Source: Amphiscolops sp. MND2022 (taxonomy: Eukaryota). Taken from it: a DNA stretch of 64,000 nt. Below are positions 28,411-64,000 of this stretch, one piece after another. Where the stretch lies: positions 34,536,001 to 34,600,000 of the forward strand of contig OZ076409.1 of the NCBI GenBank assembly GCA_964187785.1, given 5' to 3'. Each line of letters starts with the position of its first letter. The stretch's first letter is position 1. A program made the position numbers and the translations under genes. The notes below the pieces were generated by a model, which worked only from the letters and a program-made list of their open reading frames with translations, did not search any database and was not told the DNA's origin.

Positions 28411-28621
28411 TGAAAAAATTCAAACCATGCTGGCTACTAAAACTCACACTAAATCATTGGAGCGAATCGTATTTTGAGAGATCAAAATTCAGTTTAATTT
28501 GTTTCCAGATGTGATACATCTTAAAACAAATTGAACTGAATTTTGATCTCTCAAAATAATACGATGCACTTCATTAATTTAGTGCATGTTTCCGTGACAG
28601 GCATGGCTTGAAATTTTTTCA
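28411..28621. repeat. Imperfect ~210-bp foldback palindrome
   Basis: TTTTGAGAGATCAAAATTCAGTT ... AACTGAATTTTGATCTCTCAAAA around the centre AGATGTGATACATCT. Confidence 0.8.
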
Positions 28622-34648: not shown

Positions 34649-35849
34649 TTAGATAGAAAGTCCGAGGTAAATATTGAATTATTATTTTCGGAAAATAAGA
34701 GTCAACTGTTTGGTACAAACGTATTACACTTGTGTGTCCCTCAGGAGTGAAACTCGTATATATACTCTCTGGGGTATGACTTTTACAAAAGGAATTTCAC
34801 AAATGACATTCCAACATTCCTAATTAGGACATGGGACTAGTGTTTTGGCGGGATATTTACTGCAACTACTAGTAATTCCGGTCCAATCGGGAAATACTTT
34901 ACATTCTATGATCGCAATTATTTATTATCAAAGGCGGCATCAAAATATATACTAGCATATCAAATGGAACTTCTGTCCATCAAAAGAACAAGCACTCATC
35001 AGGAATGTAAACAACATTACACACATTCTTTTCAGGCACGTGTCACCACGCGACTTGAAATAAGCTTTGCAACGGTGTGAGGGACATCATGTTATTGGGC
35101 CTAATACGGCCAATCATCATGCTGATAATTACATGCATCGATCAACCGATTAGCACCAAATATATGCACTACTTCACTGTTCAAAGACATATAGCAGCTT
35201 CTATGGCCGGAAATAGTCGGCTAATTAATAGGCAAGTACTAATGGATTATGGTCTTAAGGACCTAGCGAAAGGTTGAGTGTTAGGGTGAAGCATGGATTA
35301 TGGAAGGAGATCTGGTTATTATAAGAGTACAAATACAACAAACATAACTTGTTTCATGTTAATTTAACACTTTATTTCAGCTTTGAACAAAAGGGACGGA
35401 ACCGGCCATTTGACCAGAATATTAAAAGAGAATATTAAAAGCGCGGCAACTGGCCTTACTCGGCCATTAATTAAATAGCATCAACAAACGAGATTACATA
35501 CTGCGATATGATTGGCTGAGGTAACGTGCTCAAGTGACGCTACCGGTACAGTGCCGTACGTCACTTGAACACGTTTCCTATACTGCCTTACAGTCGCTAT
35601 TGCTTTCAATTATCGCATCAATTCTAACCATACATTAATTTGATTTGGATTACTCCACTTGTACTATTTTTAACAGACTAATTAATGTAACTGAATTAAC
35701 AAAAATACAAAAGCGTGTTTTGTTACAAAACGTTAGCATAACAGTTTAAAAGTTTCAGTTTCAGAAAATTGGTAGAGTACCTGGTGCCGTTTCCTGATCT
35801 GCGGATGTCGTTGTGATCCTTGTGCCGTCACAGGCGGCAGCCTGCGACA
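34057..35849 (-). repeat. 3' LTR (1793 bp)
   Basis: TGTCGTAAG...CCTGCGACA. One edge is fixed by the left TSD, the other by identity with the right-hand insertion terminus. Confidence 0.9.
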
Positions 35850-36549
35850 CTGCAGGAGCGACGAAAAGCAGACTGCCCGCGTTCAGCCCGTTGATATAAG
35901 CTTCGCGCCTTAATCTCGTAATGTACTCCGGTTCGTCCCGCGGTGTTGACCTCTCCATATACCAGTTGACTTTCTCGTCCTTTATGTCATCTACGGACCT
36001 GCCACATACCAGACATCCTGTATAGCGCACTCTGCTGATGTCTTCGTAGGGTCGCGTATTTTGCACATGATAAGAGGCATGAAATCCGCTTGCAAAGGAT
36101 TGTACTAAGGGAGTGTTATTGCTTGGTCCTTTCTCGTGTTCCGGCGGCGACATAGGAGACTCCGGTACCGGCAGCAGCGTCTTGCATAGCTCAATTCGCG
36201 TCTTCTCCACTCTCTTGGGTGGGGCGTAGCATCTCTCATGGTCGAAGTATCTTTGGTCCATTTTGGGGGTAGTGTCCTTGTGCGGCTGTGATTTGCTTGG
36301 ACCGGCTACCATGTGTTCCTCTTCGAAGTCGTCCGTGGTCATGATTCTGCCTCCTATCAGCATAGGGCTTGAAGTCACTTCTTTCTCTATTCTCGCGATG
36401 AGCTGCTCCGTGTCCGTAGAACAGTCCGTCTCCCATCCTTCTGACAGTTCGTCGTCGCTACTTGATATGTAAATCACTGAAGCTTCAGACTCATCCGAGC
36501 TATCTCCGTCGAAGTCAAATAATTTTCTTGCCAAGTTGTATTTAGACAT
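35761..36549 (-). CDS. Accessory ORF (~262 aa from the first ATG): acidic N-terminus, SIM-like motif, CxxC; ends inside the LTR
   Basis: Intact in both units; VIYISSSDDE and CLVCGRS motifs; AATAAA downstream at 35376-35371. Confidence 0.7.
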   Translation of the reverse strand: MSKYNLARKLFDFDGDSSDESEASVIYISSSDDELSEGWETDCSTDTEQLIARIEKEVTSSPMLIGGRIMTTDDFEEEHMVAGPSKSQPHKDTTPKMDQRYFDHERCYAPPKRVEKTRIELCKTLLPVPESPMSPPEHEKGPSNNTPLVQSFASGFHASYHVQNTRPYEDISRVRYTGCLVCGRSVDDIKDEKVNWYMERSTPRDEPEYITRLRREAYINGLNAGSLLFVAPAVSQAAACDGTRITTTSADQETAPGTLPIF

Positions 36550-37492: not shown

Positions 37493-40400
37493 ATGTCTTC
37501 ATCTGAAGGTTGGTTTGTTTTTATTCCGAACTAAATTTAACTTGATCAGGGTTAAATTCGTTCACAACATGCTTCCTGTTCCCATTAGTAAACGCGTGAT
37601 AACACGTTATATTCAAATTTTCAAACACTTCCGGAAGTTTTCTAATGCGGTAAAATGGATTCTTTTCAAGGAAGCTCACCGCCAAATTTCATCTCTTTCT
37701 GTTTAGAGAATCAGAGTATAGATGAAGCTCAAACTCCAACCAACACCGTGGAGAACAACCTTACTCAGTCTGATCAAACGTTGGGTCAATTGCCTGAATC
37801 GACTGCTAATCTTGAGCTGGGACCTCTCCCACCTCTTCTTCCTCACAATAGAGCCGTATCTTTCCAGGGCCAGAACATGATTGAATCCCCTCTAAGTACT
37901 GATAGCAACGTGGATGTCACTACTTATGCAACTGAGATGGTTCAACGGATGGAGGCAACTCAAATTGCTGTGTCACCGCCAGTAATGAGAACAGATGTAG
38001 ACAAGCTTGTAGAGGCTTCCAATACGGAGGGTCTGTGCACACCCCCACCAGTTGACCCCAGGAAAATTAGTACTCCCAAGCAGATTAGCCAGGACCCAGG
38101 AGAATCGCCGAGTTTGTCTCAGCTCGAGTCGCTTCTACAAATTGCCCCTACCACTTCCTCTGGATTTCCAGAACTACAAGTTGGTATAGACACGTCAAGA
38201 GGGATTCCTGGAGTATCTTCTTTACAAGGTGAAGAAGATTCTTCTTCCATAATCAGTGGCCCCCCTCCATTACCAAAAGGGAAAACCCGAGAGATTGAAC
38301 TAACGAGTGATATGGATACCTCAGGAGCAGCATCCGGGATTGATGACCTTCCCCCTCTTTATGGTGCAATTCCAGGGTGTTCAGAGCTCGATTCCGAGAA
38401 GGACAGCGATACTGAACTTGATGAATACATCAACAACCCACTCAGGACACCGGCGGCCGGGACCTCGCAACAAGAAGAACCTTTAAGGGAGCTGTCTGGG
38501 CGTAGCAGAGCCATCTTAAAACAGTATTTCGAAACTGAAGATCCTTACACTTTCCCTGTAGGTCACCGGACAGTGGCTTTCACTGAGCCCCAGATTTACC
38601 ACCTGTTGAGAGTCCTGACCGACGAGGCAATCAGCATGACCTGTACAACAATGGAGCAAATGGTCATAGGTGCAGTAAGAGGGAGACCAGCCACGGCACC
38701 CTCTAGAACCAAGCAATTCCGAAGCCGCGCTCAGACTCCTAGACCCCAGCAAGTTGGAAGTACCAGTTCCGAAGGGTTCATTACCGATCCCGGACAGGAT
38801 TCTGAAGCCAGTGGGGATTTTAGTACGTCGCTCGAGACCGGAGGAATATCAATGCTGGACGATACTGATAGTTCTGGAGAAATGGCCCTGATAGCTGACA
38901 GTTTTAGGAAGACATCGAACAAGGACGTCAGACCTGAACAGCACACGTCTATACCACTTGGGTCAGTTGGCAGAGGAGACGAATCCACCGGACAAAGTAG
39001 CCTGGATGTCACACTGTCAGAAGTGCGGGAGCAGTCCTCGACTCAAAAACCTCGAAGTAGAAAACTTGTCAAAAGGACCTCCAAGGCCAAAACCACCCAG
39101 AGACGAGGAGTACCAATGCGGGAGGAGTTCTTCTCCAAGATTGGGTGGACTCGGTCCTTCATATCTGGTCCTGCAGACCCCCTTCACAATCCGCATATGG
39201 TGTGGTGCCATATGTGTAAGAAAAATTTCTCAATCAAGACGAAAGGGGTTGTCGAGATCCTAAGGCATCACAGGACAGAGAAACACCTTCGAAAAGATCA
39301 ACGTTGGCGCTATGAGCACCTCAAGACCGTCGACCCCATCACAGGAAAACTCCAACACAGGGTCAGAGGGAGGAATGGGAAGATCCTAAGCAAAGTTGAG
39401 TTGGCACAAGAACTCCCAAAGTTCATCCATACCGAACTTGTAGACGTGGGAGAAAGGTTTCCCTTTTATGAGGACTAACTCAAGGGAAGTACTACTGCCT
39501 TGGTAACTCCCCAGTCACGGGCCAAAACCCAAATCTGCCTCATCGGAGACTTCATTCAAAGACAGGGAGATTTAACCGTCCTTCGGAATCTATGGTCAAG
39601 AGTGGGGTCTTTCACTGATTACCAGGCAGCTTTCCACGATTTCGATTGGAGTGAGGAAAGGATCACAGTAAGTATAACTTGTGTGCCTTGTTCGTTATCT
39701 AGTCACATGATAGCATTTTGACAGGCATATATACACGCGCATATATATACATAAATAAACACACGTGAGCTAACATAAGTGAAATTGTGGCACCCAGTAA
39801 ATACAGTCCTTTCCATTTCAGGCTATATTCCAGCACATCTTCAATTGTGTGATGGAAGATATAGCTGAACAAGTGAACTCAGCACAGCATTTCTCCATTG
39901 AATTCGAGGACAGTGGGACAGATCGCCTGATGTTCCTGCGCTATTGGAGGGAGACTAAACTCTGTAGAGTTTTCATCTGCCGGAGTGCGCTTCCTGCTGC
40001 CGATCTCACTGGCGAATTGGGATCTTTGTCGCGGTTGTTATCAGTGGTGTCAACTGACCCCGATATAGTAGCCTGTTCAGGCTGCTCAGTTGACTACATA
40101 CGAGCAATTGACCAGCATCCTTCCTATTCACGAGGCATTCAGAGCTGTTTCCGTTTTGAAACACTTGATCTGCGGCTCTTGATGCACAAGTACACATACA
40201 GCGTGTTTGGCCGGATTGATATGTTCTCCGTCCTCCAGTGCCTCCTCGTTTCCCTGGGCGGTTCTGTCACAGAAGACTGGGTCCTAGAATCGCCTGAACT
40301 CACCCGAGTTAGTATACTTTGCTCAATTCAGATAGTAGCATCCTACGCAGTGGATAGGACGTGAACCATACTATATGTTTTGCAATTACATTGTATTTAG

Positions 40401-41847
40401 GCTGTTACCACCTGCAGACTGGAAGTGGACAAGCTCCCCGATTTGTGTCGGGATTTACTCAAGCGGTGGAAATCAGTTCTTCGTTATTTGACCGTCCATT
40501 CTCACCGACAGGAGAACCAGGGAGTGCACAACAAGGTCCAGAGCTTTGAGTGGTCCTTGATATCGGACGAGTTCTTCGCCGTCAGGCTGGAATTCTTTCA
40601 ACGTCTCGTAAATGACTGTAAGTAAACTATGCTTTGACATGTTTCAGTCACATGTCCGTATATGGACCCTTTTGATTTATGTTTTAGATGTGGCCAGCTT
40701 CTCAGTCAATCTCTCCCATAGACGGGATGCAACCTTCTATCTCTGTGGGGAGGTTTGCAAGTTCATCAGTCGACTCTGCTTTCGGGTGTACCAACCTGAC
40801 ACCATTCCCCTCGAGAGTGCTTGGTTTCTCCTGCTGGATTTTAGGACTAGCGACGGGAAGTTCATGCAGGACGACGAGTTCTTGGTCAGACTTAAGATGA
40901 CCAACAAGGTGGCTAGCGCTAGTAATCTGAAAGCTGCAGGATTACATTTTAACAAGAAGTCAAGTAAGGCTGCCATTGATAAAACGGCTGATGCAGCCAA
41001 GACCGACTTTGTGACCAGTGCCAAGAAATATATTGAATTTCTCCTGGGAGCTGTCTTACAACACACTGGCCTTAGCTCCGATCTTATCAAGGGGTTGGCT
41101 GCTTTCGACCCTTATATTATGATGAAACGCCCCACCGATGTGGCCCTCCGACATTTCAGTGTCTTGTATACCACATTCCAGTTGCGTTCCTGGGTCACTG
41201 AGTTAAATGAGGCTGCATGCAGGGATGAGTATCTGGCGTTGTTGGATTATCTCCGAACTTACCATTCTTCCGACCCGAGCTTCACTGATGAGCCAATTGA
41301 CCTCATTGAGTTCCTCATGGGTCTTGATTTCCTCCAGACGCATGAGCATATTCGTTACCTTTTCAAACTATGCTGTTTGTGTTTAACCTCTGTCAGTCCC
41401 CGGTATCCAGCTGTGACCATGGGGAAGGTGGACACACAAGGCCTCCAGACTCGGGTATCTGATGTAGTTCTGCCTTGTCAAAGCTACTTATCTGAGGTTT
41501 CCGGATCCTTGGCCCTTTGCTGTACTGATGTTAATCTCGAGAAGTTTTCCTTACTCTCCTCTTCGTTCGGGCAATCTGGACTCTGCTCTGATTATGATCC
41601 CTGGACGTATGTGGATAACTTCGGGCGCTCTTCGATTTACAAATCCTTCATGTCTTCTCATCGCTCGGTTGCTTCCGCAGAAGTGGGTGCTGCAGATGTT
41701 ACTGTGGCCAGCGTTCCTTCTGTACGAGATGCCCCAGCTGTTAAATTGCCCAGTGGCACTAAGCGAAAACGTATGGAAAGGAGCCAGTCTCGGTCCAGAT
41801 CATCTTCTGTTGTGATGGAGGCTTCTACCAGCACTTCTAAAGACTAA
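37493..41847 (+). pseudogene. Antisense 5-exon zinc-finger / hAT-transposase-like gene, copy with a nonsense mutation
   Basis: Exons 37493-37508, 37707-39667, 39822-40307, 40401-40617, 40688-41847, all GT-AG and phase-compatible. TAA at 39476-39478 where the other copy has TAC. Confidence 0.8.
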
Positions 41848-42078: not shown

Positions 42079-45000
42079 TTAGTATCTGAAGTCTTCTGAG
42101 TAGTTCGGATTAGGGTTTGGCCTGAGATTATATTTCCCTCCTCTAGGGCTCAGACTTTCTTTTCTAGCATCGTTTTCGGATATTTCGGGCACGATAATAT
42201 CATCCCCCCTTTTTGGAGAGTTTTGTGCATCGTTTTCATTCATTGAATTTCTTTCTGAAAAAATTTCATCATTTTCCGGTCCATCTGCCGTATTCGGCAA
42301 AGAATTTTCTTGGTTTTTCGGGAAAACGGCCGGATTCGGCCAATCAGATTTGTTATTTTCTGTCGCTGCAGTAGCTTCATTTCTTTCAGTGACGTCATCA
42401 TTCAATCGTTCATCTCGGCTGTGCGACGTACGATCGGTAAGATTTGATTCGTCACTCGTGATTACATAATCCACTTCATTCTCGCTTGCGTCACTTGCAT
42501 TCGCTTCTGCCGTACTCGGCTGTTCGTCATTCGTCAAGCTGGCTGGAATAGGCTCGCTGCCTCGCGTATCTAGCTGTTCGCCAAAATTTGTTTCCCACGT
42601 TATTACATACAAGTCGTCTTGCGGAATGATTGTTTCGTCATCCGGCTGTAGACGCTGTTCTCGGAAATTGTCCTCAAGTGGCTGATTTGGAACAAACTTT
42701 TTGAGACGAATTCGATGCAAGATCTGCGTTCTATTTGTATTAAGCCTGCGGACAATGTAATTCTCATTAGGTAAGGTCTTCTGGACTATAAATGGTCCAA
42801 CCCAGCGATAATCCCTGAATGGAATTTTTGATCCTTGATGATCCGCTTTCGGCTGTAATACAAAACAATAATCGCCCTCTTTGAGTGGGGCGGCTTTTGC
42901 TTTTCGGTCGTAATACTCCTTATATTTGATATATGACTGCATGATGTTCTGCTTTGTTTTGTCAATAAGGAGTTTGGTCCGGTTCTGGATTTCTTCTGCG
43001 AATTCAGTAGTCGGATGGATTGGTTCATTTGGATTCATTCCAAGTTTGTGATCCAAGATGTTGTATGGGATTCTCCCATGGAACACTCTTGTGGGTTCGC
43101 ATCCGATACTGGCATGATAACTAGTGTTATGATTGAGAACTGCTAAAGGCAAATATTTATGCCATTGTCGGCGATATTCCCCACATGCCATTTTCAGGTT
43201 CGTTTTCAATGAGGCATGTGTTCGCTCTAATTTCCCGATAGTTTGCGGGTGTTTCGTCGTTGCACATTTTAGGGTAATGCCTAAAATCTGTGTAATTTCC
43301 GCAATGATCGTGGAAGTAAAGGCAGTTCCTTTGTCCGTAATGAGCGTCGTCGGTAGGTAAGAATGTTTGGTCATAATATCTATGATTGCTTTAGCTACAT
43401 TGATCGCTGATGCGTCCGTAAGGGGATAAGCGAACAAGTATCGAGAGAAGACATCAATTGCGGTTAAAATATTTTCGTATCCTCCACTTGGGGGACGATT
43501 CGGCAATAAGTCGATTTGCATGGCGTCTTCGGGTCCAAGGTCCCATTCCGGCAAGTTAAGTAGTTCAGGCGTGATTGTTGCGTTTGGGACTCGTTTGTCC
43601 TTTGCACATTGTTCACACCCTTCTACCCACTTTTTGACATATTTTGCCATGTTAGGGTAATAATACCTTTGTCTGATTTCCTGCAACATTTTTGAAATCC
43701 CGGGATGTTTATGCGCTGTCCCGTGAAGGGAGTGGAGCAATTCCCGGAGTAGGTGTTGCGGGAGCAAAATTTGATGGTATTTAACATTCCCCGTTTCATC
43801 AAAATATTGCCTTGTCAGGATTTCGTCCTTTAGTACAATTCGTTCCAGATTATTTGTATAATGTCTATATCGGGCATCCTGTTGAAGTATGTTTTCTGAA
43901 TAGTCTTCGTGAAGGAGCTTTGCCTTCAGTTGTTGCAATACTGCATCTTTGGACTGCTCGATGATTATCTGGTTTGTTTTCTTTAATCGGACTTGAATGT
44001 CTGGTTGTTGTTTGACCAGATTGGTTGACAGAGTTTCTATGGTAACAGTGGGCTCGTCAATTGCTGGATTTTTCCTGATTGCTTCTTTTCTTGCCCAAAA
44101 CTGTTCTTCTGTTTCGTTGTCGTCATTCGTATAGAATATTTGTTCTTCCTGTGATACCCCCGCAGATTGAACATTTATCTCAATGGGTAAAGTTTGTACG
44201 TCTTCGCGGATTTTCATGACTAATTTATCCTTCGGATCTGCCTCCAATCGGGACAAATAGTCAGCTGCTGTGTTCTGTGCCCCCGGGATATGTGCTATGA
44301 CAAAATTGAACTGAATTACATAATCACATGCATTCCACAGGGCTGGGGGTATTATTTTTGTTTGAAAAAATCTCGTCACAGCTTTGTTGTCTGTGAGGAT
44401 AATGACCGGTTTGGGTGCACCCCAGAATATATGTCCAAATTCTTTGAATGCAAAATAAATTGCAAGAAACTCTTTGGCATATATCGACATCTTTATCTGG
44501 GCTGGGGTGAAGGTTTTAGAGCCATAAGCCACCGGTGCATAGGATTTCCGAAGGGAAGTAAATTTCTGGTTCGGATCATCTTCTATCAGTACTGCGTATC
44601 CTGCTGCGCCAAAACTTGCATCTGTCATTAATGCAATTTGCTTGTTCGGGATGGGTTGTTGTAGGGCCAATTCGCAACATTTGTCTAGTGCTTTATTGAT
44701 TTCTTCGAATTGTTGGACTAATTCTTTCGATACTAGGACTTTTTCGTCACTTTTTAGCATCTTGTAGAATGGAGCAAGGCGTTCGGAGAGTCTTGGGATA
44801 TAATTCCTGTAGTAATTTAGGAATCCCAAATATCGTTGTAAAGCCTTTTTCGACTTCGGGAATTTGGTCTTTTCCAGAAAGTTTTGCACGTTCTGTTTCT
44901 GGGGTTTGACGCCTTGCGGGGTAATAGTTCTTCCGAGAAAATCAATTTCTTTGGCACCAAAGTGACATTTGTGCCTTGTCAATTTAAGGCCTGCTTCCTG

Positions 45001-47292
45001 AATGCATTTGAATGTAGCTCTCAGGTTAGCTATGAGGTGGTCAGCGTCGTTTGCTGCAATGCCTATATCGTCCACGTACTGGGCACACTGATCCGCTTTG
45101 ATGACTTTGTCGAGGTATTCTCTCATAAAACTCGAGAATGCGGATAGTGACCGGCTAAGGCCTTGTGCCAAACGTCTGTAGGCGAATGTGCGACTGGCAA
45201 AATTGAAAGCCAACATTTCTATTGAACGTTGGTCGGCCATTGGTAGGCAATGGTATGCCTGCGAACAGTCTAATTTACAGAATAGTTTTTTGCCTGCCAA
45301 GTGTTGGGCAGCATCAACCAAGGTGCTAACAGGGTGATTATTGTTTATATAATCATCCGAGATGAGGTTGTTGATTTTTCTCAAGTCAACTAAAAGTCGT
45401 AGCTTCCCGTTTGGTTTCTTTTGGGCGAATATTGGGCTTGCATACTTTGAGAACGGTAGAGTGGTGATGATGCCATATTTGTGTAACATGGCTAATTCGA
45501 CTAGGATGTCCTCCTTCAAGTTGATAGGAGCTGGAAGACTTTGACTATAGGCTGGGGAATCGTCTTTAGGTGTCAGTTTCACCTTGAAGTCCTCGTTCAT
45601 GCCTATATCGAATCGGTGTCGTGCAAAGATGTCGTGGAATTCCACTAACAATTCTTCTATTTTCTCCTTCTCTTCAGGAGTAAGGGTGGAATCTTTCCAA
45701 TCAAAGTTTTCTAAGAATTTCACACGTGATTCTTCGTCTTTGGTGGGGTCAAGTGTCTCTAGGTCCTGTAAGGCCTGTAATTCTTGAAGGATTCGCTTTT
45801 GTATGGGCGTATGTTCCTCAGGGTTTCCAGGGTTTTCTGGAGTTGGGAACCAGTAGTTTTCAGTGTTTTGTGGATTTCTGTTCGTCTTGATCAGGCTACT
45901 GATGTAATGGGCTGCTTGCTCTTGGTCGTTTTGCAACAAATGCCAGGTTGATGCCGGGTCTACCGGTTTGACGTATTTCATTTGTTCTGGCGTCATGACA
46001 GAGAAATTGGCAATATGTAATCCCTTTTTGAGTTTATAAGGATGGTCTGTGAAATTGTTCACTGGTATCAATATATTGCCATCATTCAGAGTGACCAAGG
46101 CTGGGCAGAATGTGATGTCGCCTTCTTCATGTAGAAGGTCGCTCGGTTGTAAAATTCCAGTGACAGCATTCTCAGGGTACAGTAGGGAATTGGTCCTGAT
46201 TAGGACTCTGTCATTCGGCGGAATGGTTATTTCAGTAGGGTTGAGAATTGGTTCTAGCACATTTGAGTATTTATGGTCAGCTGTTTTTAGCTGCATTGAA
46301 AAGAACGGGAAGTTCAGGATTCCTTGCCTCATGTCCAGAACTGTATGATTTCGCTGGAGGAACATTAGTCCTATGATTGGTCCTGTCAGATGTTCCATTA
46401 CTATGAAGATTTCATGGAACTCAATGTCACCAACTTCGAATTTAAGCTCTATGGTACTTTTAGGAGTTTCCAGTTGCCCATTAGCGACCATGATTTGGAA
46501 GTTTGGAGGCGGACCCTCTCGGATAACTGATTGTGGTGAAAGGAGTCTAATTTTCCGGAGGTCCATTTCGGGGATTGCACTGGACAGCGCTCCAGTGTCG
46601 ATGAGTCCATCAATGGTCAATTCCCCAAAGTCCATAGGGAAATATAGCATGCGTTTCTTGCATTTCAAGTTTATGTTGGTAGACAGGGGTATACAGTCTT
46701 TTTCACCTTCTCTGGTAATAAGGATGTTTTGGAACTGACTTTCGTCAAGTAGTGACTGTGGTATTGTTTCTTCTGGTTTGTCTGAGGTCTCGGTCCCTAA
46801 AGGGTTTGGGAACACCGGATGGCTTGTACCGTCGTTCATCTGCCATGTTTCAATCAATGCTCTGGTTTTCTTGTTATGGGTGATTGGTGGATTGTCATGG
46901 ACTGATCTGTTATAGAGTTCTATATCATCAATAACGTATTGGAATTGTAACAAATCCTGGTTGTAAAGTTCGGTATCCCAATAGGGATCTCGTCCATAGT
47001 CAGGATCTATGTAGGTAGGGTTGTAGTTGTCTACCAGGGGAATGGGCCTGAATCGGCTATTGAAAGCGGATGTGTAATCAGGGTCCCATACAGGAATTGG
47101 TTTTTGGAACAAATGGGTATTATTGTAAGTAATAATGGTAGCTTTTTCCATTTGTTGCTGCCAGACAACAGAAGGATAGCCCATCAATTGTTGATTGTAT
47201 TGGTGAAAAGTTTGCGTTGGAGGGTCCGATCTGATGTATTGTCGGACAGATATTAGTTGGTTATATTGGAGTCGTGGCGAAGTTAGTTTTTT
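42079..47292 (-). CDS. pol: Gypsy Pol polyprotein (protease, RT, RNase H, integrase), intact
   Basis: LIDTGA; YVDD; LMTDAS..E..TDN..ADYLSR; H-HPG..CEQC; IDLL..TDKG..E; WVGPF. The frame is open back to the gag slippery site. Confidence 0.97.
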   Translation of the reverse strand, partial: KKLTSPRLQYNQLISVRQYIRSDPPTQTFHQYNQQLMGYPSVVWQQQMEKATIITYNNTHLFQKPIPVWDPDYTSAFNSRFRPIPLVDNYNPTYIDPDYGRDPYWDTELYNQDLLQFQYVIDDIELYNRSVHDNPPITHNKKTRALIETWQMNDGTSHPVFPNPLGTETSDKPEETIPQSLLDESQFQNILITREGEKDCIPLSTNINLKCKKRMLYFPMDFGELTIDGLIDTGALSSAIPEMDLRKIRLLSPQSVIREGPPPNFQIMVANGQLETPKSTIELKFEVGDIEFHEIFIVMEHLTGPIIGLMFLQRNHTVLDMRQGILNFPFFSMQLKTADHKYSNVLEPILNPTEITIPPNDRVLIRTNSLLYPENAVTGILQPSDLLHEEGDITFCPALVTLNDGNILIPVNNFTDHPYKLKKGLHIANFSVMTPEQMKYVKPVDPASTWHLLQNDQEQAAHYISSLIKTNRNPQNTENYWFPTPENPGNPEEHTPIQKRILQELQALQDLETLDPTKDEESRVKFLENFDWKDSTLTPEEKEKIEELLVEFHDIFARHRFDIGMNEDFKVKLTPKDDSPAYSQSLPAPINLKEDILVELAMLHKYGIITTLPFSKYASPIFAQKKPNGKLRLLVDLRKINNLISDDYINNNHPVSTLVDAAQHLAGKKLFCKLDCSQAYHCLPMADQRSIEMLAFNFASRTFAYRRLAQGLSRSLSAFSSFMREYLDKVIKADQCAQYVDDIGIAANDADHLIANLRATFKCIQEAGLKLTRHKCHFGAKEIDFLGRTITPQGVKPQKQNVQNFLEKTKFPKSKKALQRYLGFLNYYRNYIPRLSERLAPFYKMLKSDEKVLVSKELVQQFEEINKALDKCCELALQQPIPNKQIALMTDASFGAAGYAVLIEDDPNQKFTSLRKSYAPVAYGSKTFTPAQIKMSIYAKEFLAIYFAFKEFGHIFWGAPKPVIILTDNKAVTRFFQTKIIPPALWNACDYVIQFNFVIAHIPGAQNTAADYLSRLEADPKDKLVMKIREDVQTLPIEINVQSAGVSQEEQIFYTNDDNETEEQFWARKEAIRKNPAIDEPTVTIETLSTNLVKQQPDIQVRLKKTNQIIIEQSKDAVLQQLKAKLLHEDYSENILQQDARYRHYTNNLERIVLKDEILTRQYFDETGNVKYHQILLPQHLLRELLHSLHGTAHKHPGISKMLQEIRQRYYYPNMAKYVKKWVEGCEQCAKDKRVPNATITPELLNLPEWDLGPEDAMQIDLLPNRPPSGGYENILTAIDVFSRYLFAYPLTDASAINVAKAIIDIMTKHSYLPTTLITDKGTAFTSTIIAEITQILGITLKCATTKHPQTIGKLERTHASLKTNLKMACGEYRRQWHKYLPLAVLNHNTSYHASIGCEPTRVFHGRIPYNILDHKLGMNPNEPIHPTTEFAEEIQNRTKLLIDKTKQNIMQSYIKYKEYYDRKAKAAPLKEGDYCFVLQPKADHQGSKIPFRDYRWVGPFIVQKTLPNENYIVRRLNTNRTQILHRIRLKKFVPNQPLEDNFREQRLQPDDETIIPQDDLYVITWETNFGEQLDTRGSEPIPASLTNDEQPSTAEANASDASENEVDYVITSDESNLTDRTSHSRDERLNDDVTERNEATAATENNKSDWPNPAVFPKNQENSLPNTADGPENDEIFSERNSMNENDAQNSPKRGDDIIVPEISENDARKESLSPRGGKYNLRPNPNPNYSEDFRY
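47286..47292 (-). promoter_or_regulatory. -1 ribosomal frameshift slippery site A AAA AAC
   Basis: Gag ends TCA AAA AAC TAA; the -1 frame reads LTSPRLQYNQ...QQLMGYP straight into pol. Confidence 0.8.
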
Positions 47293-48400
47293 GACTCATC
47301 ATTTGAAGATGAGGTTTGTGAGTTGGGAGATGTTGATTTGTTTTGTGGTTTCTGCGCCTTTGAATTGGGGTTACCGTCATTAGCGTCATCTGGTCTGGTG
47401 CGTTTGGGTTTGAGATGCGCACCAGCACCTTGCCAACATCTTTCTTCCGGGTGGTTCTTTTTACCACAAGTGCCACACTCCGGGTACGTCTTTTTCTGAG
47501 TCTGTTTGCCTTGTTCGGCATCTTTTTGTTTTTTCTTCTTCAATTTCTCGCAATCTTTGACCATATGGCCCTTTTCTTTGCAATAATTGCACGTTATATC
47601 ACTCATCTGTACATTGGAAGGAACAGTTTTTGTCTTGCCAATCGAAGATGTCATTGATGCTATAGGCAGGTCGTCAGACTCTTCGAGTGCATTCAGTTCC
47701 AGTTCTCGTTCTAGATGAGCGACAATTTCATCGTAAGAGCCATTCTCTAGTCTAGCCATGTTGACTGATCTTTTGAGCTTTGGTGGCAGTTTTGCATATA
47801 GGAGACTGTCGATCATTTTTTGGGCATTGTCTCCGAAGGCTTTTTCTGCTCCTTGGTTAAGCTCTTCAAGAAAGTCTGGCAATTTGGTCGTGTTAGGGTC
47901 AAAGACTAGGCGATGCCATTTATGTTTTGCAGTTGCCTGAGATTCGGGTTTGACGTACTTTCGTCTGAAAATGACAAGTACATCCTCAAGAGTTTGTCTG
48001 TTGGCGTTGCTGATGTTTCTGAATGTTTGGAGTGCATTCTTTCGCAGCAAGGAATGGAAGTGATTGATTTTCATTTTTTCGGTCATCTCAGGCTGCATCT
48101 TGATCATCGTATGGAATAAATCCTCAAACAGCTCAAACTTCTCACTTTTTCCGTCGAATGTCATTGTGTTGGAGTTGACTGGGCGGATAGTGAGTTGTTG
48201 GGCCGTTGTGCGGTTCTGCATACTAGTCAAAACATCTGCTAGCCTGTTGATGGGGTCCTGTTCTGATGCCAGAGCGGGTCGTTCTTGTGCTGGGATCGTC
48301 GTGTCGAGCAGCGGAAGGTCATCACAGGATCTGTTGAGATGACTAGTGGATGGCATTCGTCCTGTGAGAAACTCAGGAACTTCAATTGGAGATTCGTTTT

Positions 48401-48412
48401 CTCCTGTCACCA
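48401..48412 (-). promoter_or_regulatory. Primer-binding site, tRNA-Leu-like
   Basis: TGGTGACAGGAG immediately follows the LTR-terminal CA; one mismatch from the TGGTGTCAGGAG of animal tRNA-Leu PBSs. Confidence 0.7.
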
Positions 48413-50203
48413 TGTCGTAAGCACGGTTGTCCGTTAATGTGAATCCGTCTTTCTGACGGTCACCAAGTGTCTTACTCTTCAAATTGTTCCTAGAGTCTGA
48501 ATTACGCAGAACTTCAGAATATCCTTCCGGTCTCTCAGACGGAACGTTCCATCTCTCTTTGGTCATATGCCCAGAATTGGCCATAAGGGCATTTTGAATC
48601 TGGGGGAGTACTTGATTGCTTATAGCCTCACTTATAGCTTTGGATCTGAATATTAACACTGTCCATCATCTCATCCATCTCCCGCGATATGCGGGAATTT
48701 AATTCACTCGACAGTCTGTTGATCTCAGCGTTAGAACTACCTCTAACTGAGTTCTGTCCTAATTCGGCATTTGGACCAGGCTCGTCAGTTCTAGAGTTGG
48801 GCGATCTATTTTCATCCTCATTTTCAAATTCATCACCAAAAAGACTATTAGGTCTTCTGGCCTGATTACTATTTAAACTTTCACTTCTTTCATTCCTAAT
48901 AAAATGGTCTTCTCCAAGCATTATGTCTAAGTTCTCAATGTCGGATAACATTTCTGCTTCTCTTGATTTTCTTGCTTTCTTTTGCTTCCTTGTGGTAGGC
49001 ATTTAGATAGAAAGTCCGAGGTAAATATTGAATTATTATTTTCGGAAAATAAGAGTCAACTGTTTGGTACAAACGTATTACACTTGTGTGTCCCTCAGGA
49101 GTGAAACTCGTATATATACTCTCTGGGGTATGACTTTTACAAAAAGAATTTCACAAATGACATTCCAACATTCCTAATTAGGACATGGGACTAGTGTTTT
49201 GGCGGGATATTTACTGCAACTACTAGTAATTCCGGTCCAATCGGGAAATACTTTACATTCTATGATCGCAATTATTTATTATCAAAGGCGGCATCAAAAT
49301 ATATACTAGCATATCAAATGGAACTTCTGTCCATCAAAAGAACAAGCACTCATCAGGAATGTAAACAACATTACACACATTCTTTTCAGGCACGTGTCAC
49401 CACGCGACTTGAAATAAGCTTTGCAACGGTGTGAGGGACATCATGTTATTGGGCCTAATACGGCCAATCATCATGCTGATAATTACATGCATCGATCAAC
49501 CGATTAGCACCAAATATATGCACTACTTCACTGTTCAAAGACATATAGCAGCTTCTATGGCCGGAAATAGTCGGCTAATTAATAGGCAAGTACTAATGGA
49601 TTATGGTCTTAAGGACCTAGCGAAAGGTTGAGTGTTAGGGTGAAGCATGGATTATGGAAGGAGATCTGGTTATTATAAGAGTACAAATACAACAAACATA
49701 ACTTGTTTCATGTTAATTTAACACTTTATTTCAGCTTTGAACAAAAGGGACGGAACCGGCCATTTGACCAGAATATTAAAAGAGAATATTAAAAGCGCGG
49801 CAACTGGCCTTACTCGGCCATTAATTAAATAGCATCAACAAACGAGATTACATACTGCGATATGATTGGCTGAGGTAACGTGCTCAAGTGACGCTACCGG
49901 TACAGTGCCGTACGTCACTTGAACACGTTTCCTATACTGCCTTACAGTCGCTATTGCTTTCAATTATCGCATCAATTCTAACCATACATTAATTTGATTT
50001 GGATTACTCCACTTGTACTATTTTTAACAGACTAATTAATGTAACTGAATTAACAAAAATACAAAAGCGTGTTTTGTTACAAAACGTTAGCATAACAGTT
50101 TAAAAGTTTCAGTTTCAGAAAATTGGTAGAGTACCTGGTGCCGTTTCCTGATCTGCGGATGTCGTTGTGATCCTTGTGCCGTCACAGGCGGCAGCCTGCG
50201 ACA
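48413..50203 (-). repeat. Internal shared LTR (1791 bp)
   Basis: Copy of 34057-35849 with a 2-bp deletion and a handful of substitutions; abutted by the PBS. Confidence 0.9.
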
Positions 50204-50903
50204 CTGCAGGAGCGACGAAAAGCAGACTGCCCGCGTTCAGCCCGTTGATATAAGCTTCGCGCCTTAATCTCGTAATGTACTCCGGTTCGTCCCGCGGTGT
50301 TGACCTCTCCATATACCAGTTGACTTTCTCGTCCTTTATGTCATCTACGGACCTGCCACATACCAGACATCCTGTATAGCGCACTCTGCTGATGTCTTCG
50401 TAGGGTCGCGTATTTTGCACATGATAAGAGGCATGAAATCCGCTTGCAAAGGATTGTACTAAGGGAGTGTCATTGCTTGGTCCTTTCTCGTGTTCCGGCG
50501 GCGACATAGGAGACTCCGGTACCGGCAGCAGCGTCTTGCATAGCTCAATTCGCGTCTTCTCCACTCTCTTGGGTGGGGCGTAGCATCTCTCATGGTCGAA
50601 GTATCTTTGGTCCATTTTGGGGGTAGTGTCCTTGTGCGGCTGTGAGTTGCTTGGACCGGCTACCATGTGTTCCTCTTCGAAGTCGTCCGTGGTCATGATT
50701 CTGCCTCCTATCAGCATAGGGCTTGAAGTCACTTCTTTCTCTATTCTCGCGATGAGCTGCTCCGTGTCCGTAGAACAGTCCGTCTCCCATCCTTCTGACA
50801 GTTCGTCGTCGCTACTTGATATGTAAATCACTGAAGCTTCAGACTCATCCGAGCTATCTCCGTCGAAGTCAAATAATTTTCTTGCCAAGTTGTATTTAGA
50901 CAT
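50115..50903 (-). CDS. Accessory acidic SIM-like/CxxC ORF, second copy
   Basis: Two amino-acid differences from the 35761 copy. Confidence 0.7.
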   Translation of the reverse strand: MSKYNLARKLFDFDGDSSDESEASVIYISSSDDELSEGWETDCSTDTEQLIARIEKEVTSSPMLIGGRIMTTDDFEEEHMVAGPSNSQPHKDTTPKMDQRYFDHERCYAPPKRVEKTRIELCKTLLPVPESPMSPPEHEKGPSNDTPLVQSFASGFHASYHVQNTRPYEDISRVRYTGCLVCGRSVDDIKDEKVNWYMERSTPRDEPEYITRLRREAYINGLNAGSLLFVAPAVSQAAACDGTRITTTSADQETAPGTLPIF

Positions 50904-51846: not shown

Positions 51847-54800
51847 ATGTCTTCATCTGAAGGTTGGTTTGTTTTTATTCCGAACTAAATTTAACTTGAT
51901 CAGGGTTAAATTCGTTCACAACATGCTTCCTGTTCCCATTAGTAAACGCGTGATAACACGTTTTATTCAAATTTTCAAACACTTCCGGAAGTTTTCTAAT
52001 GCGGTAAAATGGATTCTTTTCAAGGAAGCTCACCGCCAAATTTCATCTCTTTCTGTTTAGAGAATCAGAGTATAGATGAAGCTCAAACTCCAACCAACAC
52101 CGTGGAGAACAACCTTACTCAGTCTGATCAAACGTTGGGTCAATTGCCTGAATCGACTGCTAATCTTGAGCTGGGACCTCTCCCACCTCTTCTTCCCCAC
52201 AATAGAGCCGTATCTTTCCAGGGCCAGAACATGATTGAATCCCCTCTAAGTACTGATAGCAACGTGGATGTCACTACTTATGCAACTGAGATGGTTCAAC
52301 GGATGGAGGCAACTCAAATTGCTGTGTCACCGCCAGTAATGAGAACAGATGTAGACAAGCTTGTAGAGGCTTCCAATACGGAGGGTCTGTGCACACCCCC
52401 ACCAGTTGACCCCAGGAAAATTAGTACTCCCAAGCAGATTAGCCAGGACCCAGGAGAATCGCCGAGTTTGTCTCAGCTCGAGTCGCTTCTACAAATTGCC
52501 CCTACCACTTCCTCTGGATTTCCAGAACTACAAGTTGGTATAGACACGTCAAGAGGGATTCCTGGAGTATCTTCTTTACAAGGTGAAGAAGATTCTTCTT
52601 CCATAATCAGTGGCCCCCCTCCATTACCAAAAGGGAAAACCCGAGAGATTGAACTAACGAGTGATATGGATACCTCAGGAGCAGCATCCGGGATTGATGA
52701 CCTTCCCCCTCTTTATGGTGCAATTCCAGGGTGTTCAGAGCTCGATTCCGAGAAGGACAGCGATACTGAACTTGATGAATACATCAACAACCCACTCAGG
52801 ACACCGGCGGCCGGGACCTCGCAACAAGAAGAACCTTTAAGGGAGCTGTCTGGGCGTAGCAGAGCCATCTTAAAACAGTATTTCGAAACTGAAGATCCTT
52901 ACACTTTCCCTGTAGGTCACCGGACAGTGGCTTTCACTGAGCCCCAGATTTACCACCTGTTGAGAGTCCTGACCGACGAGGCAATCAGCATGACCTGTAC
53001 AACAATGGAGCAAATGGTCATAGGTGCAGTAAGAGGGAGACCAGCCACGGCACCCTCTAGAACCAAGCAATTCCGAAGCCGCGCTCAGACTCCTAGACCC
53101 CAGCAAGTTGGAAGTACCAGTTCCGAAGGGTTCATTACCGATCCCGAACAGGATTCTGAAGCCAGTGGGGATTTTAGTACGTCGCTCGAGACCGGAGGAA
53201 TATCAATGCTGGACGATACTGATAGTTCTGGAGAAATGGCCCTGATAGCTGACAGTTTTAGGAAGACATCGAACAAGGACGTCAGACCTGAACAGCACAC
53301 GTCTATACCACTTGGGTCAGTTGGCAGAGGAGACGAATCCACCGGACAAAGTAGCCTGGATGTCACACTGTCAGAAGTGCGGGAGCAGTCCTCGACTCAA
53401 AAACCTCGAAGTAGAAAACTTGTCAAAAGGACCTCCAAGGCCAAAACCACCCAGAGACGAGGAGTACCAATGCGGGAGGAGTTCTTCTCCAAGATTGGGT
53501 GGACTCGGTCCTTCATATCTGGTCCTGCAGACCCCCTTCACAATCCGCATATGGTGTGGTGCCATATGTGTAAGAAAAATTTCTCAATCAAGACGAAAGG
53601 GGTTGTCGAGATCCTAAGGCATCACAGGACAGAGAAACACCTTCGAAAAGATCAACGTTGGCGCTATGAGCACCTCAAGACCGTCGACCCCATCACAGGA
53701 AAAGTCCAACACAGGGTCAGAGGGAGGAATGGGAAGATCCTAAGCAAAGTTGAGTTGGCACAAGAACTCCCAAAGTTCATCCATACCGAACTTGTAGACG
53801 TGGGAGAAAGGTTTCCCTTTTATGAGGACTACCTCAAGGGAAGTACTACTGCCTTGGTAACTCCCCAGTCACGGGCCAAAACCCAAATCTGCCTCATCGG
53901 AGACTTCATTCAAAGACAGGGAGATTTAACCGTCCTTCGGAATCTATGGTCAAGAGTGGGGTCTTTCACTGATTACCAGGCAGCTTTCCACGATTTCGAT
54001 TGGAGTGAGGAAAGGATCACAGTAAGTATAACTTGTGTGCCTTGTTCGTTATCTAGTCACATGATAGCATATTGACAGGCATATATACACGCGCATATAT
54101 ATACATAAATAAACACACGTGAGCTAACATAAGTGAAATTGTGGCACCCAGTAAATACAGTCCTTTCCATTTCAGGCTATATTCCAGCACATCTTCAATT
54201 GTGTGATGGAAGATATAGCTGAACAAGTGAACTCAGCACAGCATTTCTCCATTGAATTCGAGGACAGTGGGACAGATCGCCTGATGTTCCTGCGCTATTG
54301 GAGGGAGACTAAACTCTGTAGAGTTTTCATCTGCCGGAGTGCGCTTCCTGCTGCCGATCTCACTGGCGAATTGGGATCTTTGTCGCGGTTGTTATCAGTG
54401 GTGTCAACTGACCCCGATATAGTAGCCTGTTCAGGCTGCTCAGTTGACTACATACGAGCAATTGACCAGCATCCTTCCTATTCACGAGGCATTCAGAGCT
54501 GTTTCCGTTTTGAAACACTTGATCTGCGGCTCTTGATGCACAAGTACACATACAGCGTGTTTGGCCGGATTGATATGTTCTCCGTCCTCCAGTGCCTCCT
54601 CGTTTCCCTGGGCGGTTCTGTCACAGAAGACTGGGTCCTAGAATCGCCTGAACTCACCCGAGTTAGTATATTTTGCTCAATTCAGATAGTAGCATCCTAC
54701 GCAGTGGATAGGACGTGAACCATACTATATGTTTTGCAATTACATTGTATTTAGGCTGTTACCACCTGCAGACTGGAAGTGGACAAGCTCCCCGATTTGT

Positions 54801-56201
54801 GTCGGGATTTACTCAAGCGGTGGAAATCAGTTCTTCGTTATTTGACCGTCCATTCTCACCGACAGGAGAACCAGGGAGTGCACAACAAGGTCCAGAGCTT
54901 TGAGTGGTCCTTGATATCGGACGAGTTCTTCGCCGTCAGGCTGGAATTCTTTCAACGTCTCGTAAATGACTGTAAGTAAACTATGCTTTGACATGTTTCA
55001 GTCACATGTCCGTATATGGACCCTTTTGATTTATGTTTTAGATGTGGCCAGCTTCTCAGTCAATCTCTCCCATAGACGGGATGCAACCTTCTATCTCTGT
55101 GGGGAGGTTTGCAAGTTCATCAGTCGACTCTGCTTTCGGGTGTACCAACCTGACACCATTCCCCTCGAGAGTGCTTGGTTTCTCCTGCTGGATTTTAGGA
55201 CTAGCGACGGGAAGTTCATGCAGGACGACGAGTTCTTGGTCAGACTTAAGATGACCAACAAGGTGGCTAGCGCTAGTAATCTGAAAGCTGCAGGATTACA
55301 TTTTAACAAGAAGTCAAGTAAGGCTGCCATTGATAAAACGGCTGATGCAGCCAAGACCGACTTTGTGACCAGTGCCAAGAAATATATTGAATTTCTCCTG
55401 GGAGCTGTCTTACAACACACTGGCCTTAGCTCCGATCTTATCAAGGGGTTGGCTGCTTTCGACCCTTATATTATGATGAAACGCCCCACCGATGTGGCCC
55501 TCCGACATTTCAGTGTCTTGTATACCACATTCCAGTTGCGTTCCTGGGTCACTGAGTTAAATGAGGCTGCATGCAGGGATGAGTATCTGGCGTTGTTGGA
55601 TTATCTCCGAACTTACCATTCTTCCGACCCGAGCTTCACTGATGAGCCAATTGACCTCATTGAGTTCCTCATGGGTCTTGATTTCCTCCAGACGCATGAG
55701 CATATTCGTTACCTTTTCAAACTATGCTGTTTGTGTTTAACCTCTGTCAGTCCCCGGTATCCAGCTGTGACCATGGGGAAGGTGGACACACAAGGCCTCC
55801 AGACTCGGGTATCTGATGTAGTTCTGCCTTGTCAAAGCTACTTATCTGAGGTTTCCGGATCCTTGGCCCTTTGCTGTACTGATGTTAATCTCGAGAAGTT
55901 TTCCTTACTCTCCTCTTCGTTCGGGCAATCTGGACTCTGCTCTGATTATGATCCCTGGACGTATGTGGATAACTTCGGGCGCTCTTCGATTTACAAATCC
56001 TTCATGTCTTCTCATCGCTCGGTTGCTTCCGCAGAAGTGGGTGCTGCAGATGTTACTGTGGCCAGCGTTCCTTCTGTACGAGATGCCCCAGCTGTTAAAT
56101 TGCCCAGTGGCACTAAGCGAAAACGTATGGAAAGGAGCCAGTCTCGGTCCAGATCATCTTCTGTTGTGATGGAGGCTTCTACCAGCACTTCTAAAGACTA
56201 A
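51847..56201 (+). CDS. Antisense 5-exon gene, ~1279-aa zinc-finger / degenerate hAT-transposase-like protein, intact copy
   Basis: Exons 51847-51862, 52061-54021, 54176-54661, 54755-54971, 55042-56201 sum to 3840 nt and are open; contains WCHMCKKNFSI..G..EILRHHRTEKH finger. Confidence 0.8.
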
Positions 56202-61072: not shown

Positions 61073-61083
61073 AGTGCCAGTTT

Positions 61084-61153
61084 CCTGGTGCCGTTTCCTG
61101 ATCTGCGGATGTCGTTGTGATCCTTGTGCCGTCACAGGCGGCAGCCTGCGACA
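61084..61153 (-). repeat. 5' LTR remnant (outer 70 bp)
   Basis: Identical to 35780-35849 and followed by the TSD CGAAG. Confidence 0.9.
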
Positions 61154-61592
61154 CGAAGTATTCAAAAGAAGACCCTTTAGGTTTGCATAAAACATTTTTC
61201 CAAGCCGAACTTTTTTTTCAAAAAGTGAAGGGGTACCTTTTGACCAAACGTTTTTTTTTAAAAAAGTCTCATCAGTCCCACATTACCAAAAAAGAACGTA
61301 ATAAAGCACATTTAGTCTCGGAAAGTTTTTCATTAACAGAACAAGCAAAAAGATATGTTTTAAAAACATTTCTAATTGTTTTCTTCAAAAATCATTTAGT
61401 AACTCGAGAGACTAGAGAGACTCTGTTTGATTCCATAGAAGGGCATTGCTGTTTTTAGTCGGCGCAATTTAACAAAATGAGCCCGACTATTACAAAGGCA
61501 AGTTTTTTTCTTTTTTTTTTGCGACAGATGAAAGAATGTATGTGTAGTGGAAACTTTTTACAGAACTACTAAACTAGTAGTAGTTAAACTAC

Positions 61593-64000
61593 TTCTATCA
61601 AAAGCTGAATCTCATCTAATCAAGTTTCCTAATGAGTTTTTCTCGGGTGAACCTAATCGTCATCAGATACCCGTTACGATCTTCATTGTGGCGTCTGGAT
61701 GTCTAGACTTCTAATGATATACCACAGTTAAAATTTTTAAAAAGTCTCACAGTACCAGAAAAGCCCAAAGGGGGACCCTTTGCTCCTATATAGCTTCTAA
61801 ATTTTTAGTAAAAATGTAAAATCAAAGCGGAATCTTTGGTCTCTTTAGGTACCCTTTAGACCTTCAGATAGTGGGCCATTAAATTGAATACTGTCATATG
61901 ACGAAAAAAACTGGACGATGTAATAGTCGGGGACATTTCTTACAAATAGCTTAGTCTAAAATGTAGGTTTCAAAGTAAATCAGATAGAAATATCTTTGAT
62001 TATTGTGAAGTTAGAAGACTAATAGTTCGCATTTAATACGTACGAAGAGTTATATCATTTTGGCTGTTCTACGCCATACGTATATGCAATTCTTTACAGG
62101 TTGGCGATACTGCGCCAATCAAGACATTGACCTAATGGCATGGCCGATAACTTTTTCAATCAGGTTTTCAATTTTTCACTATTATTCGCAGTTTTAAATG
62201 TTCAACATTGGCGACGGGATAAGAAACATACTTTTTTCAAGATAACTTCGTTTTTTGATTTGAACAAATTCATATATATTCCAATTTTCACGGTATAGCT
62301 ACTAGAGCTTTCAAACAAAGACCTTTTCAGCTACATGAGTGCTTCCAAATTTAAAGTTGTCCCTTTTGTTTCAGCTTTGTGTGGGGACGTCCTGACTCAG
62401 GAATCGACCGGGGCCTTTAGGACAAACAGAGCACGACAGAGGTGGGCATCAGCCATCAGCACCCGACAACAGTCCTTTAAACTGCTCAGTTTTGGCTCCC
62501 GGCTGCTTTTTTAACTTTTTGCATAGAAACCCCACCCTCGAGACTTTTCACTGTTGGCACCTTAATGACGAGGCCACCAAGTTGCTGATCACACTGGCTT
62601 AACTGCTAACTCTCGGCAATTCACTGTTCACACTTGACCCGACTGACTCGATGTACTCGGCAACCAATAGAAACTAAGCAACTGTAGACTGTAGTATAGA
62701 GGTTGTGGCTGACAAAAATATTTGCTGCTACTCGTGGGCGAAAGCAAAGAAACAGCCAATTGAAATGAAGCAACATATCACGTGCTCTCATTGTGACTGG
62801 CACAAACGGAACCCTCGCACCCAATTAAATTTGAGACGCGAGCAAACTCGGTGAAAAAAGACTCATCGAAAAACATTGCAATTTCATACACTTCATCTGT
62901 AAATACTCCTTTCAATTTTTTATTTTACGATTTTGGTGCTTAATGAAAACTTTAAAAACCGACTTTTAAAATGAATTTCAATTTATTTCAATTTTTAAAA
63001 TCTAGATCAAAGCTCTGAATCAATCAAAAGTTCATGATTTCAATCACAATCATAAAAATCTACAAAAAATTACAAAAGTTTCGGAGCTTTGAGCTTTATA
63101 ATTTTACTGACAGACTTGATACTTCAAGAATTTTTGAATTTCCAAAATATTCATTATTGTTTTGATTCTATGATTGTAATGTACTTGTAGATTAGCCTAC
63201 TTTATTTTGATTGGATGATTAATTTCACCCTTTTATTTCACCTCGAATGAAACGAGACCCCATTTTGAGCGACTAAATTTTCCTAACTTTTTAAACAACA
63301 CTCCTTTGGTGCCATTGACTCTCCTTTTAAACGATTGCCTACCTTTGGCCTCAAGCGTATGTGTAATTAACTTCTTCACTTTCCTTTTTTTCAATACTCC
63401 TCTTTCAAATTGCTGAAAACGAGAAAATTTTAGCATATAACGCATTTAGCATAGATGGAGAGTCGAAGTATCCAAACCTAAGTGAAGCTATAGGTACAGA
63501 AGCAGCAGCTAAAGTCCCAGGAGCAAACGCTTCTAAGGCTTGATCTGAATTAGAACATAATTTTCTGTTTGAAATCCAATAAAATTTTGAAAAAGTTATA
63601 TATAAAAGCACTTTCAATAATTTTGGAAACTTTTGAACTTTAGTGTGCAATATCAAAAACTACTGGTCACAATCGCATTTTGTGACCATTTTGGGATGTA
63701 AATTTTCAACGAGAGCGTTTTCAGAAAAAAATGTTGAATTCAAAAATTAGTGATGTGAATTGGAAGAACAAAGTTTTTCTCGCGCATTTTTGGTTACAAA
63801 CAACGGTTTTCGAGATATTGCACGATAATTTTTGGCATAGCCAAAAGTCTAAACCAAACTTAGTGTTATATCTTTTGTAAACAAGCTGGAAAGGTCCCAA
63901 GTCGGCGCCCCGCTCATGGGTAAAGTGTGTTAAATATGCGAAGGGACATTAATGTGAGAACATTTATCAACTTTAGTGCCAAAAGTACCCAAAGGGATAC
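61593..64000 (+). repeat. Segmental duplication, copy 2 (runs off the window)
   Basis: Matches 31307-33715 with a few SNPs and a 1-bp indel. Confidence 0.95.

Follow-up and report, generated by a model that had tools for sequence, protein, structure and literature searches.

A Ty3/gypsy-type retrotransposon lineage with the start of gag inside its long terminal repeat

The window, the whole 64,000-nucleotide stretch of DNA analysed here, holds a retrotransposon in which gag begins within the long terminal repeat (LTR). The gag ATG is base 1202 of the repeat, that is, 592 bases inside it, and 197 codons plus one base lie within the LTR. An LTR-coded gag start, of 114–197 codons, is confirmed as a lineage-wide feature. 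We think it highly probable that these copies represent a Ty3/gypsy-type lineage in which the LTR carries the first codons of gag, the RNA starts after a TATA box in the LTR, and translation proceeds from an AUG in the LTR through the integrase end and a tRNA-Leu primer-binding site (PBS).

Self-alignment shows that the insertion, spanning 34057–61153 on the minus strand, is a tandem element built LTR–internal–LTR–internal–LTR, with the following landmarks:

34052–34056, no strand: target-site duplication CGAAG, left copy, supported by the empty site in L249
34057–35849, minus strand: 3′ LTR, 1,793 bp, with ends TGTCGC...CGACA, the full-length LTR
48413–50203, minus strand: middle LTR, 1,791 bp, common to both tandem units, with 5 mismatches and one 2-base gap relative to the 3′ LTR
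61073–61153, minus strand: remnant of the outer 5′ LTR, its first 81 bases, joined directly to pol by an internal deletion
61154–61158, no strand: target-site duplication CGAAG, right copy

CGAAG directly flanks both ends of the insertion as a 5-bp target duplication, and just past the window end a duplicated copy of the flank (L249) carries a single CGAAG, the empty site. The flanks 31307–34056 and 61593–64000 and L249 form a tandem segmental duplication (99.7%), one copy holding the element and the next the empty site. The outer tandem unit is without most of its 5′ LTR and gag, the 81 remaining LTR bases abutting the protease region. An Rfam scan over 34000–61200 gave no matches.

Around the LTR edge, gag is arranged as follows:

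34043–34648, minus strand: gag N-terminal frame of the 3′ LTR, 197 codons plus 4 into the flank (201 aa)
48413–49002, minus strand: LTR-coded gag N-terminus of the middle LTR copy, frameshifted near 48639
48411–48413, minus strand: in-frame ATG (Met198), the final base of the LTR plus bases 1 and 2 of the PBS
48401–48412, minus strand: PBS TGGTGACAGGAG, complementary to the tRNA-Leu(CAG) 3′ end and also gag codons
47283–48412, minus strand: gag downstream of the LTR, comprising linker, capsid domain (residues 276–442 of the 573-aa form) and zinc knuckles

The CA|TGG junction is read in the gag frame as D-M-V-T-G. The original prediction had placed the start of gag about 590 nt inside the LTR and the terminus at 34057 near codon 197, had read the junction as A-Y-D-M-V-T-G-E with the attachment CA and the PBS as in-frame gag codons, and had listed the frame 34043–34648; all of this agrees with our analysis, the terminus being fixed by the target duplication and the empty site and gag being read through both signals. 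What it overlooked is that the frame taken as open at 48401–49002 is broken there by the 2-base gap near 48639, which leaves open reading frames (ORFs) 48628–49002 and 47283–48584, so the upstream copy in the window cannot make the long protein.

Of the best 30 junction matches in the 1.07-Gb assembly of the window, 27 have an uninterrupted frame between the LTR AUG and the junction, and in 24 it extends over all 573 codons; the three that are not open to the junction are the window's own copy and two with a stop. For the LTR-coded protein, the best 150 matches divide into 62 in frames of at least 570 codons (three of which contain a stop that the tool passed over), 9 in frames of 300–570 codons and 79 in frames of 198–283 codons. 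Further elements were mapped by searching the same genome with relatives of the 573-aa Gag protein, which are many and all without a name. Identical termini with a 5-bp duplication, as predicted for other insertions, recur in 18 of 20 close elements fetched with both ends, the other two having unlike flanks in one case and a truncated 3′ LTR in the other. A second set, made up of subfamilies at ~75–80% Gag identity, two at ~57% and one family at ~39%, yielded 16 of 20 elements closed by a target duplication, with LTRs of 1.5–1.8 kb that hold 187–195 gag codons; four were not closed. In a third family (~33% Gag identity, judged by its relative P0165), 9 of 10 elements have the duplication, and their LTRs of 1.9–2.1 kb contain 114 codons. 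The metagenome contig L219 has 129 codons before the same junction, its LTR being inferred from motifs and not from a duplication, and none of the scored candidates in the window's genome closely matches its N-terminus.

Altogether, 43 of 50 other copies (18/20, 16/20 and 9/10) carry 5-bp duplications at these LTR ends. That the repeat ends have been mis-drawn, and that the true LTR stops upstream of gag, has nothing in its favour except the unusual layout; with the shared ends of these 43 elements and a tRNA match that abuts the LTR end both against it, and with an LTR ending upstream of gag ruled out by the empty site, we leave it next to no chance.

The LTR-coded part evolves as protein. 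Its dN/dS is 0.09–0.18 in the 10 of 15 between-subfamily pairs with measurable dS (dS is saturated in the other 5), with values of 0.09 (interval 0.05–0.15) and 0.10 (interval 0.05–0.17) for the closest pairs. Substitutions at codon positions 1, 2 and 3 number 240, 214 and 609 over 9 pairs, each with p ≤ 0.003. A set of 39 close LTRs shows 14 distinct indels, every one of them in the non-coding part (p = 0.003; p = 0.03 when only bases outside the search query are counted, which allows for how the copies were picked). Judged by these substitution and indel patterns, the LTR-coded part of gag is under purifying selection; the coding conservation on which the original prediction depended is thus present. 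Were gag to start only at the junction AUG, the upstream frame would be a relic or would be kept for DNA or RNA signals, and it is true that the capsid fold and the knuckles lie wholly after Met198. The third-position excess and dN/dS near 0.1, together with frame-keeping length changes and the lack of a pre-junction stop in families down to 33–39% Gag identity, make this very improbable.

Upstream of the start codon lies one further conserved feature:

49111–49118, minus strand: conserved TATA-like box, 116 bases upstream of the gag ATG

Of 19 representatives, 17 have such a box at most 300 bases upstream of the AUG: all ten from A–I have it at −116 to −156, amid unconserved DNA, and all four of K have it 234–272 bases before the AUG; it is absent from two of the four of D. 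Transcription would begin inside the LTR about 30 bases after the box (~85–125 bases before the AUG in A–I), and ribosomes would initiate at the AUG in the LTR, or at an in-frame Met close by, and continue through the attachment CA and the PBS. No conserved poly(A) hexamer was found between TATA and AUG across the representatives, and for this reason R and U5 are unmapped. The statement that U5 encodes a third of Gag therefore stands as to the LTR-coded third, which is selected as protein, while the U5 label is not established, the poly(A) site being unmapped. In 9 of the 10 A–I representatives, the base at −3 of the first AUG is a pyrimidine. This is a weak start context by vertebrate rules, so initiation may occur at a later in-frame Met, for example Met18.

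The prediction had also proposed a shorter Gag from the junction ATG. A two-form arrangement, in which the LTR AUG gives a long Gag and the AUG at the LTR/PBS junction a short form made up of capsid and nucleocapsid, is in keeping with the invariance of Met198, with its purine or C-A-C at −3 and G at +4, and with the 6 of 269 homologous proteins that begin at MVTG, although these may be gene calls on broken copies. Ty1 p22 offers a precedent, being a truncated Gag from a subgenomic RNA (PMC4551931). However, CA followed by TGG forces an ATG, so its conservation needs no translational role, and 10–23 AUGs precede it in 14 of 19 representatives (A–I and D), which makes a short Gag by leaky scanning unlikely in those 14; it is possible in the other five (families K and L219), where only 0–4 AUGs lie between the two starts. 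On balance we regard two forms as unlikely but worth keeping in mind, and favour translation of the long form from the LTR.

The protein encoded by this long frame, and its continuation into pol, includes the following features:

34223–34390, minus strand: codons 87–142 in the 3′ LTR copy, the single ordered helix of the LTR-coded part, predicted to self-assemble (model of natural copy P0001)
47286–47292, minus strand: slippery heptamer AAAAAAC directly before the gag stop, a likely −1 frameshift site
42079–47295, minus strand: pol frame PR–RT–RH–IN, −1 relative to gag

In a model of a natural 573-aa copy, helix 87–142 is the only confident piece of the LTR-coded part, with disorder around it and across the junction. 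Three copies of residues 84–146 gave an oligomer score of 0.80, against 0.00 for the best control, with contact agreement of at least 93% and pLDDT of at least 86. Of the solved homo-pairs used for calibration, 21 of 30 attained the mark for this score, against 0 of 23 single chains (17 of 29 and 0 of 30 for eukaryotes); because this calibration used two copies, the three-copy score supports self-assembly but does not show it. The modelled helix thus likely self-assembles as a coiled coil, with the caveat that long amphipathic helices are easily modelled as coiled coils. Pfam gave nothing over its cut-off for the LTR-coded part, and a protein atlas search with residues 1–197 gave a best score of 0.75 and no lead. 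After the PBS, the model has a capsid domain at residues 276–442, weakly similar to the PNMA2, dArc and copia capsids. The sequence match to the PNMA2 capsid has an E-value of 1.2e-3, and the structure match has Z 10.0 and rmsd 10.2 Å over 157 residues, with single lobes at Z 8.5–9.0 and rmsd 2.1–2.9 Å; the best 29 structure matches are all capsids. Gag would thus consist of a basic tip, a long coiled-coil helix predicted to oligomerise, a disordered linker with the LTR edge and PBS, the capsid and the zinc knuckles, and the DNA signals may be tolerated in gag because they fall in the linker. In 7 of 8 copies examined, gag ends on the slippery heptamer with pol in the −1 frame. Gag-Pol would arise by −1 frameshifting at the gag stop, and Pol therefore likely also depends on the LTR gag start.

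The same N-terminal frame is present in every complete 3′ LTR checked (19 of 19), open over 199–235 codons. This, the 79 of the best 150 matches in frames of fragment length and the predicted self-assembly of the helix are what one would expect if fragments from 3′ or solo LTRs were made, acted in trans, co-assembled with full Gag through the helix and limited transposition; Ty1 has truncated-Gag restriction factors, but these derive from the capsid C-terminal domain (PMC10951436). Open 3′ LTR frames are expected in young copies anyway. Between the two LTRs of single insertions (18 pairs), we counted 17 non-synonymous, 1 stop and 8 synonymous differences. Selection on inserted 3′ LTR frames was thus not detected in these 18 pairs, whose post-insertion changes are not distinguishable from neutral (p = 0.14). 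Fragments acting in trans appear improbable to us; in the preferred reading, the 3′ LTR frame would be a passive copy of the 5′ one.

The 12-base PBS is invariant in 19 of 19 representatives, and the sequence is variable from base 13. A tRNA pattern with a 3′ end complementary to the PBS occurs at 956 places in the genome, against 0 for the reversed control. ARAGORN called one of six sampled pattern loci as tRNA-Leu(CAG), the 3′ end of which, with an assumed CCA, pairs with the 12 PBS bases, the host tRNA match that the prediction had anticipated. A large tandem array of tRNA-Leu-like 3′ ends, spaced mostly at 296 bases, lies near 35.59–35.64 Mb (G000:C8); ARAGORN called no tRNA gene in a 1.4-kb sample of it. 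The likeness of CTCCTGCAG before the LTR to a tRNA end was dropped, being absent from B–F. Decayed H-M-V-T-G repeats adjoin the junction in P0128, P0137, P0155 and L219:9716–9780, and suggest that the attachment/PBS unit may duplicate inside the Gag linker.

With 708 bases between TATA and the LTR end, a first cDNA piece of about 680 bases is expected, which would carry the whole N-terminal module; if strand transfer took it to a different packaged RNA, the module would be exchanged at the LTR edge. In a comparison of subfamilies E and F, 63 of the 200 bases preceding the LTR end are different and 2 of the 200 that follow it, with a crossover between −11 and +31. On this alignment, the E/F pair would fit a module swap by strand transfer at the LTR edge. 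It is the one clean edge swap among 16 aligned copies, other pairs changing identity elsewhere.

The element has the gag/PBS layout of Ty1 but is not a member of Ty1/copia. In Ty1, integrase comes before RT; here, the order is PR–RT–RH–IN (Pfam positions 184–278, 589–754, 823–944 and 1142–1313), with integrase not ahead of RT. The primer is tRNA-Leu, unlike the tRNAi-Met of Ty1. The domain order, TG...CA LTRs, 5-bp duplication, tRNA PBS and PNMA2/dArc-like capsid fold are those of Ty3/gypsy (Metaviridae-type) elements. RT–RH scores are about equal (E 1e-28 to 3e-27) against 8r0s, 4ol8, 7ksf and Ty3 7q5b, and single out no clade. Ty1 of Saccharomyces cerevisiae has a 5′ UTR of nt 1–53 and a PBS at nt 95–104 inside GAG, about 14 codons after the start, and PBS changes that keep the GAG protein have been used (PMC5454406). 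As here, the GAG start precedes the PBS and the PBS is coding, so the layout is known in kind, and the statement that gag normally starts downstream of the PBS, from which the prediction set out, is overstated, with Ty1 a known exception (PMC5454406). The 114–197 codons found here are some ten times as many as in Ty1 and include a predicted folded helix. In the usual Ty3/gypsy plan, the 5′ LTR is followed by an internal region that holds gag and pol, and additional ORFs close to the 3′ LTR have been described (PMC7264820). In the lineage described here, by contrast, both LTR edges lie in conserved sense ORFs, and A–F have no purine-rich tract before the 3′ LTR. What is new is the far longer LTR-coded gag, its presence in a Ty3/gypsy-type element and the inclusion of both LTR edges in protein frames. 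No described element with more than 100 gag codons inside the LTR was found in the openly searchable literature, a scope that leaves aside Repbase, GyDB and subscription journals. The available parts of PMC7969010, PMC6431247, PMC11381356, PMC13524379, PMC4202319 and PMC3095310 contain no comparable case, although tables, for example those of PMC13524379, might hold one.

The opposite LTR edge and the region between pol and the LTR hold the following:

35761–36549, minus strand: 262-aa accessory ORF of the first unit, its last 29 codons in the first bases of the 3′ LTR
50115–50903, minus strand: 262-aa accessory ORF of the second unit, crossing the upstream LTR edge
50204–50218, minus strand: polypurine-tract position, with 5 of 15 bases purine
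37655–41847, plus strand: antisense ORFs between pol and the 3′ LTR, first unit
52009–56201, plus strand: antisense ORFs between pol and the LTR, second unit

In all 16 of the 3′ pieces of A–H and D, the accessory ORF, which has a CxxC motif and no Pfam match, passes the polypurine-tract position and enters the LTR in the same phase, with 14–29 codons inside the LTR; it does so in 7 of 10 of K as well. With gag across one edge and this ORF across the other, coding sequence spans both ends of the LTR. Accessory ORFs of retroviruses, HIV nef among them, likewise run over the polypurine tract into U3, and in HIV-type retroviruses gag starts after the PBS; nef-type overlaps thus concern the other LTR edge only, whereas here gag also crosses an edge. 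The two LTR-edge frames are in the same phase, a match with one chance in three, and if two LTRs were joined end to end (CA|TG), an ATG would be created and the Gag N-terminus would continue in frame into the tail of the accessory ORF.

The last 13 bases before the 3′ LTR include 5–7 purines in A–F and 8–12 in G, H, D, K and L219; relatives of A–F carry GGGGGAG or GGGGAC tracts there. Although purine-poor at this edge (50204–50218 and 35850–35864 in the window), A–F still insert with exact ends and have LTRs up to 100% identical. A conserved hairpin over the edge as a substitute primer signal was rejected, z-scores in A–F being −0.2 to −2.05 or positive. No stem spanning the 3′ edge is common to A–F; the one recurrent structure is a hairpin within the first 30 bases of the LTR. 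The antisense ORFs have relatives in 12 of 13 related loci compared, L219 included. As to an env between pol and the 3′ LTR, five extra ORFs scanned gave no Pfam family over the cut-off.

These observations contradict the usual assumption that LTRs do not code for protein and merely flank gag: the repeat encodes as much as a third of Gag, including a predicted folded domain, and its opposite edge is within a second conserved ORF. Such Gags are truncated when annotation separates the LTR from the internal region, and dates or dN/dS values derived from LTRs need to take account of selection within the repeat. From this layout one would expect a first cDNA piece of unusual length, exchange of domains at the primer site and, in their thousands, Gag-fragment genes already in place and open to read-through into host DNA, a route by which restriction factors or new genes could arise and which can be tested. 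A more far-reaching account, which we consider a long shot, would make the LTR a mobile Gag cassette of promoter and oligomerisation domain, swapped between co-packaged subfamilies at the LTR edge with each first-strand transfer. Every 3′ or solo LTR would then express a trimerising fragment that poisons assembly, and the youngest subfamilies would prime the second strand without a purine tract because the second protein frame holds the site. If true, this would be a built-in, subfamily-specific copy-number control. Ty1 p22 and DRT2, truncated Gags that co-assemble with particles, limit mobility (PMC10951436) and serve as a model for the putative 3′-LTR fragments; they are capsid C-terminal fragments with shown function, whereas the fragment proposed here would be a predicted N-terminal helix.

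Elsewhere in the window, short inverted repeats at 11046–11386, 18575–18777 and 28411–28621 are probably miniature DNA transposons. The segment 1549–3075 (minus strand) has two ORFs in AT-rich DNA, one of 236 aa that includes a hydrophobic stretch and an AT/AN repeat and one of 270 aa, neither with a Pfam family over the cut-off; it is perhaps part of another mobile element.
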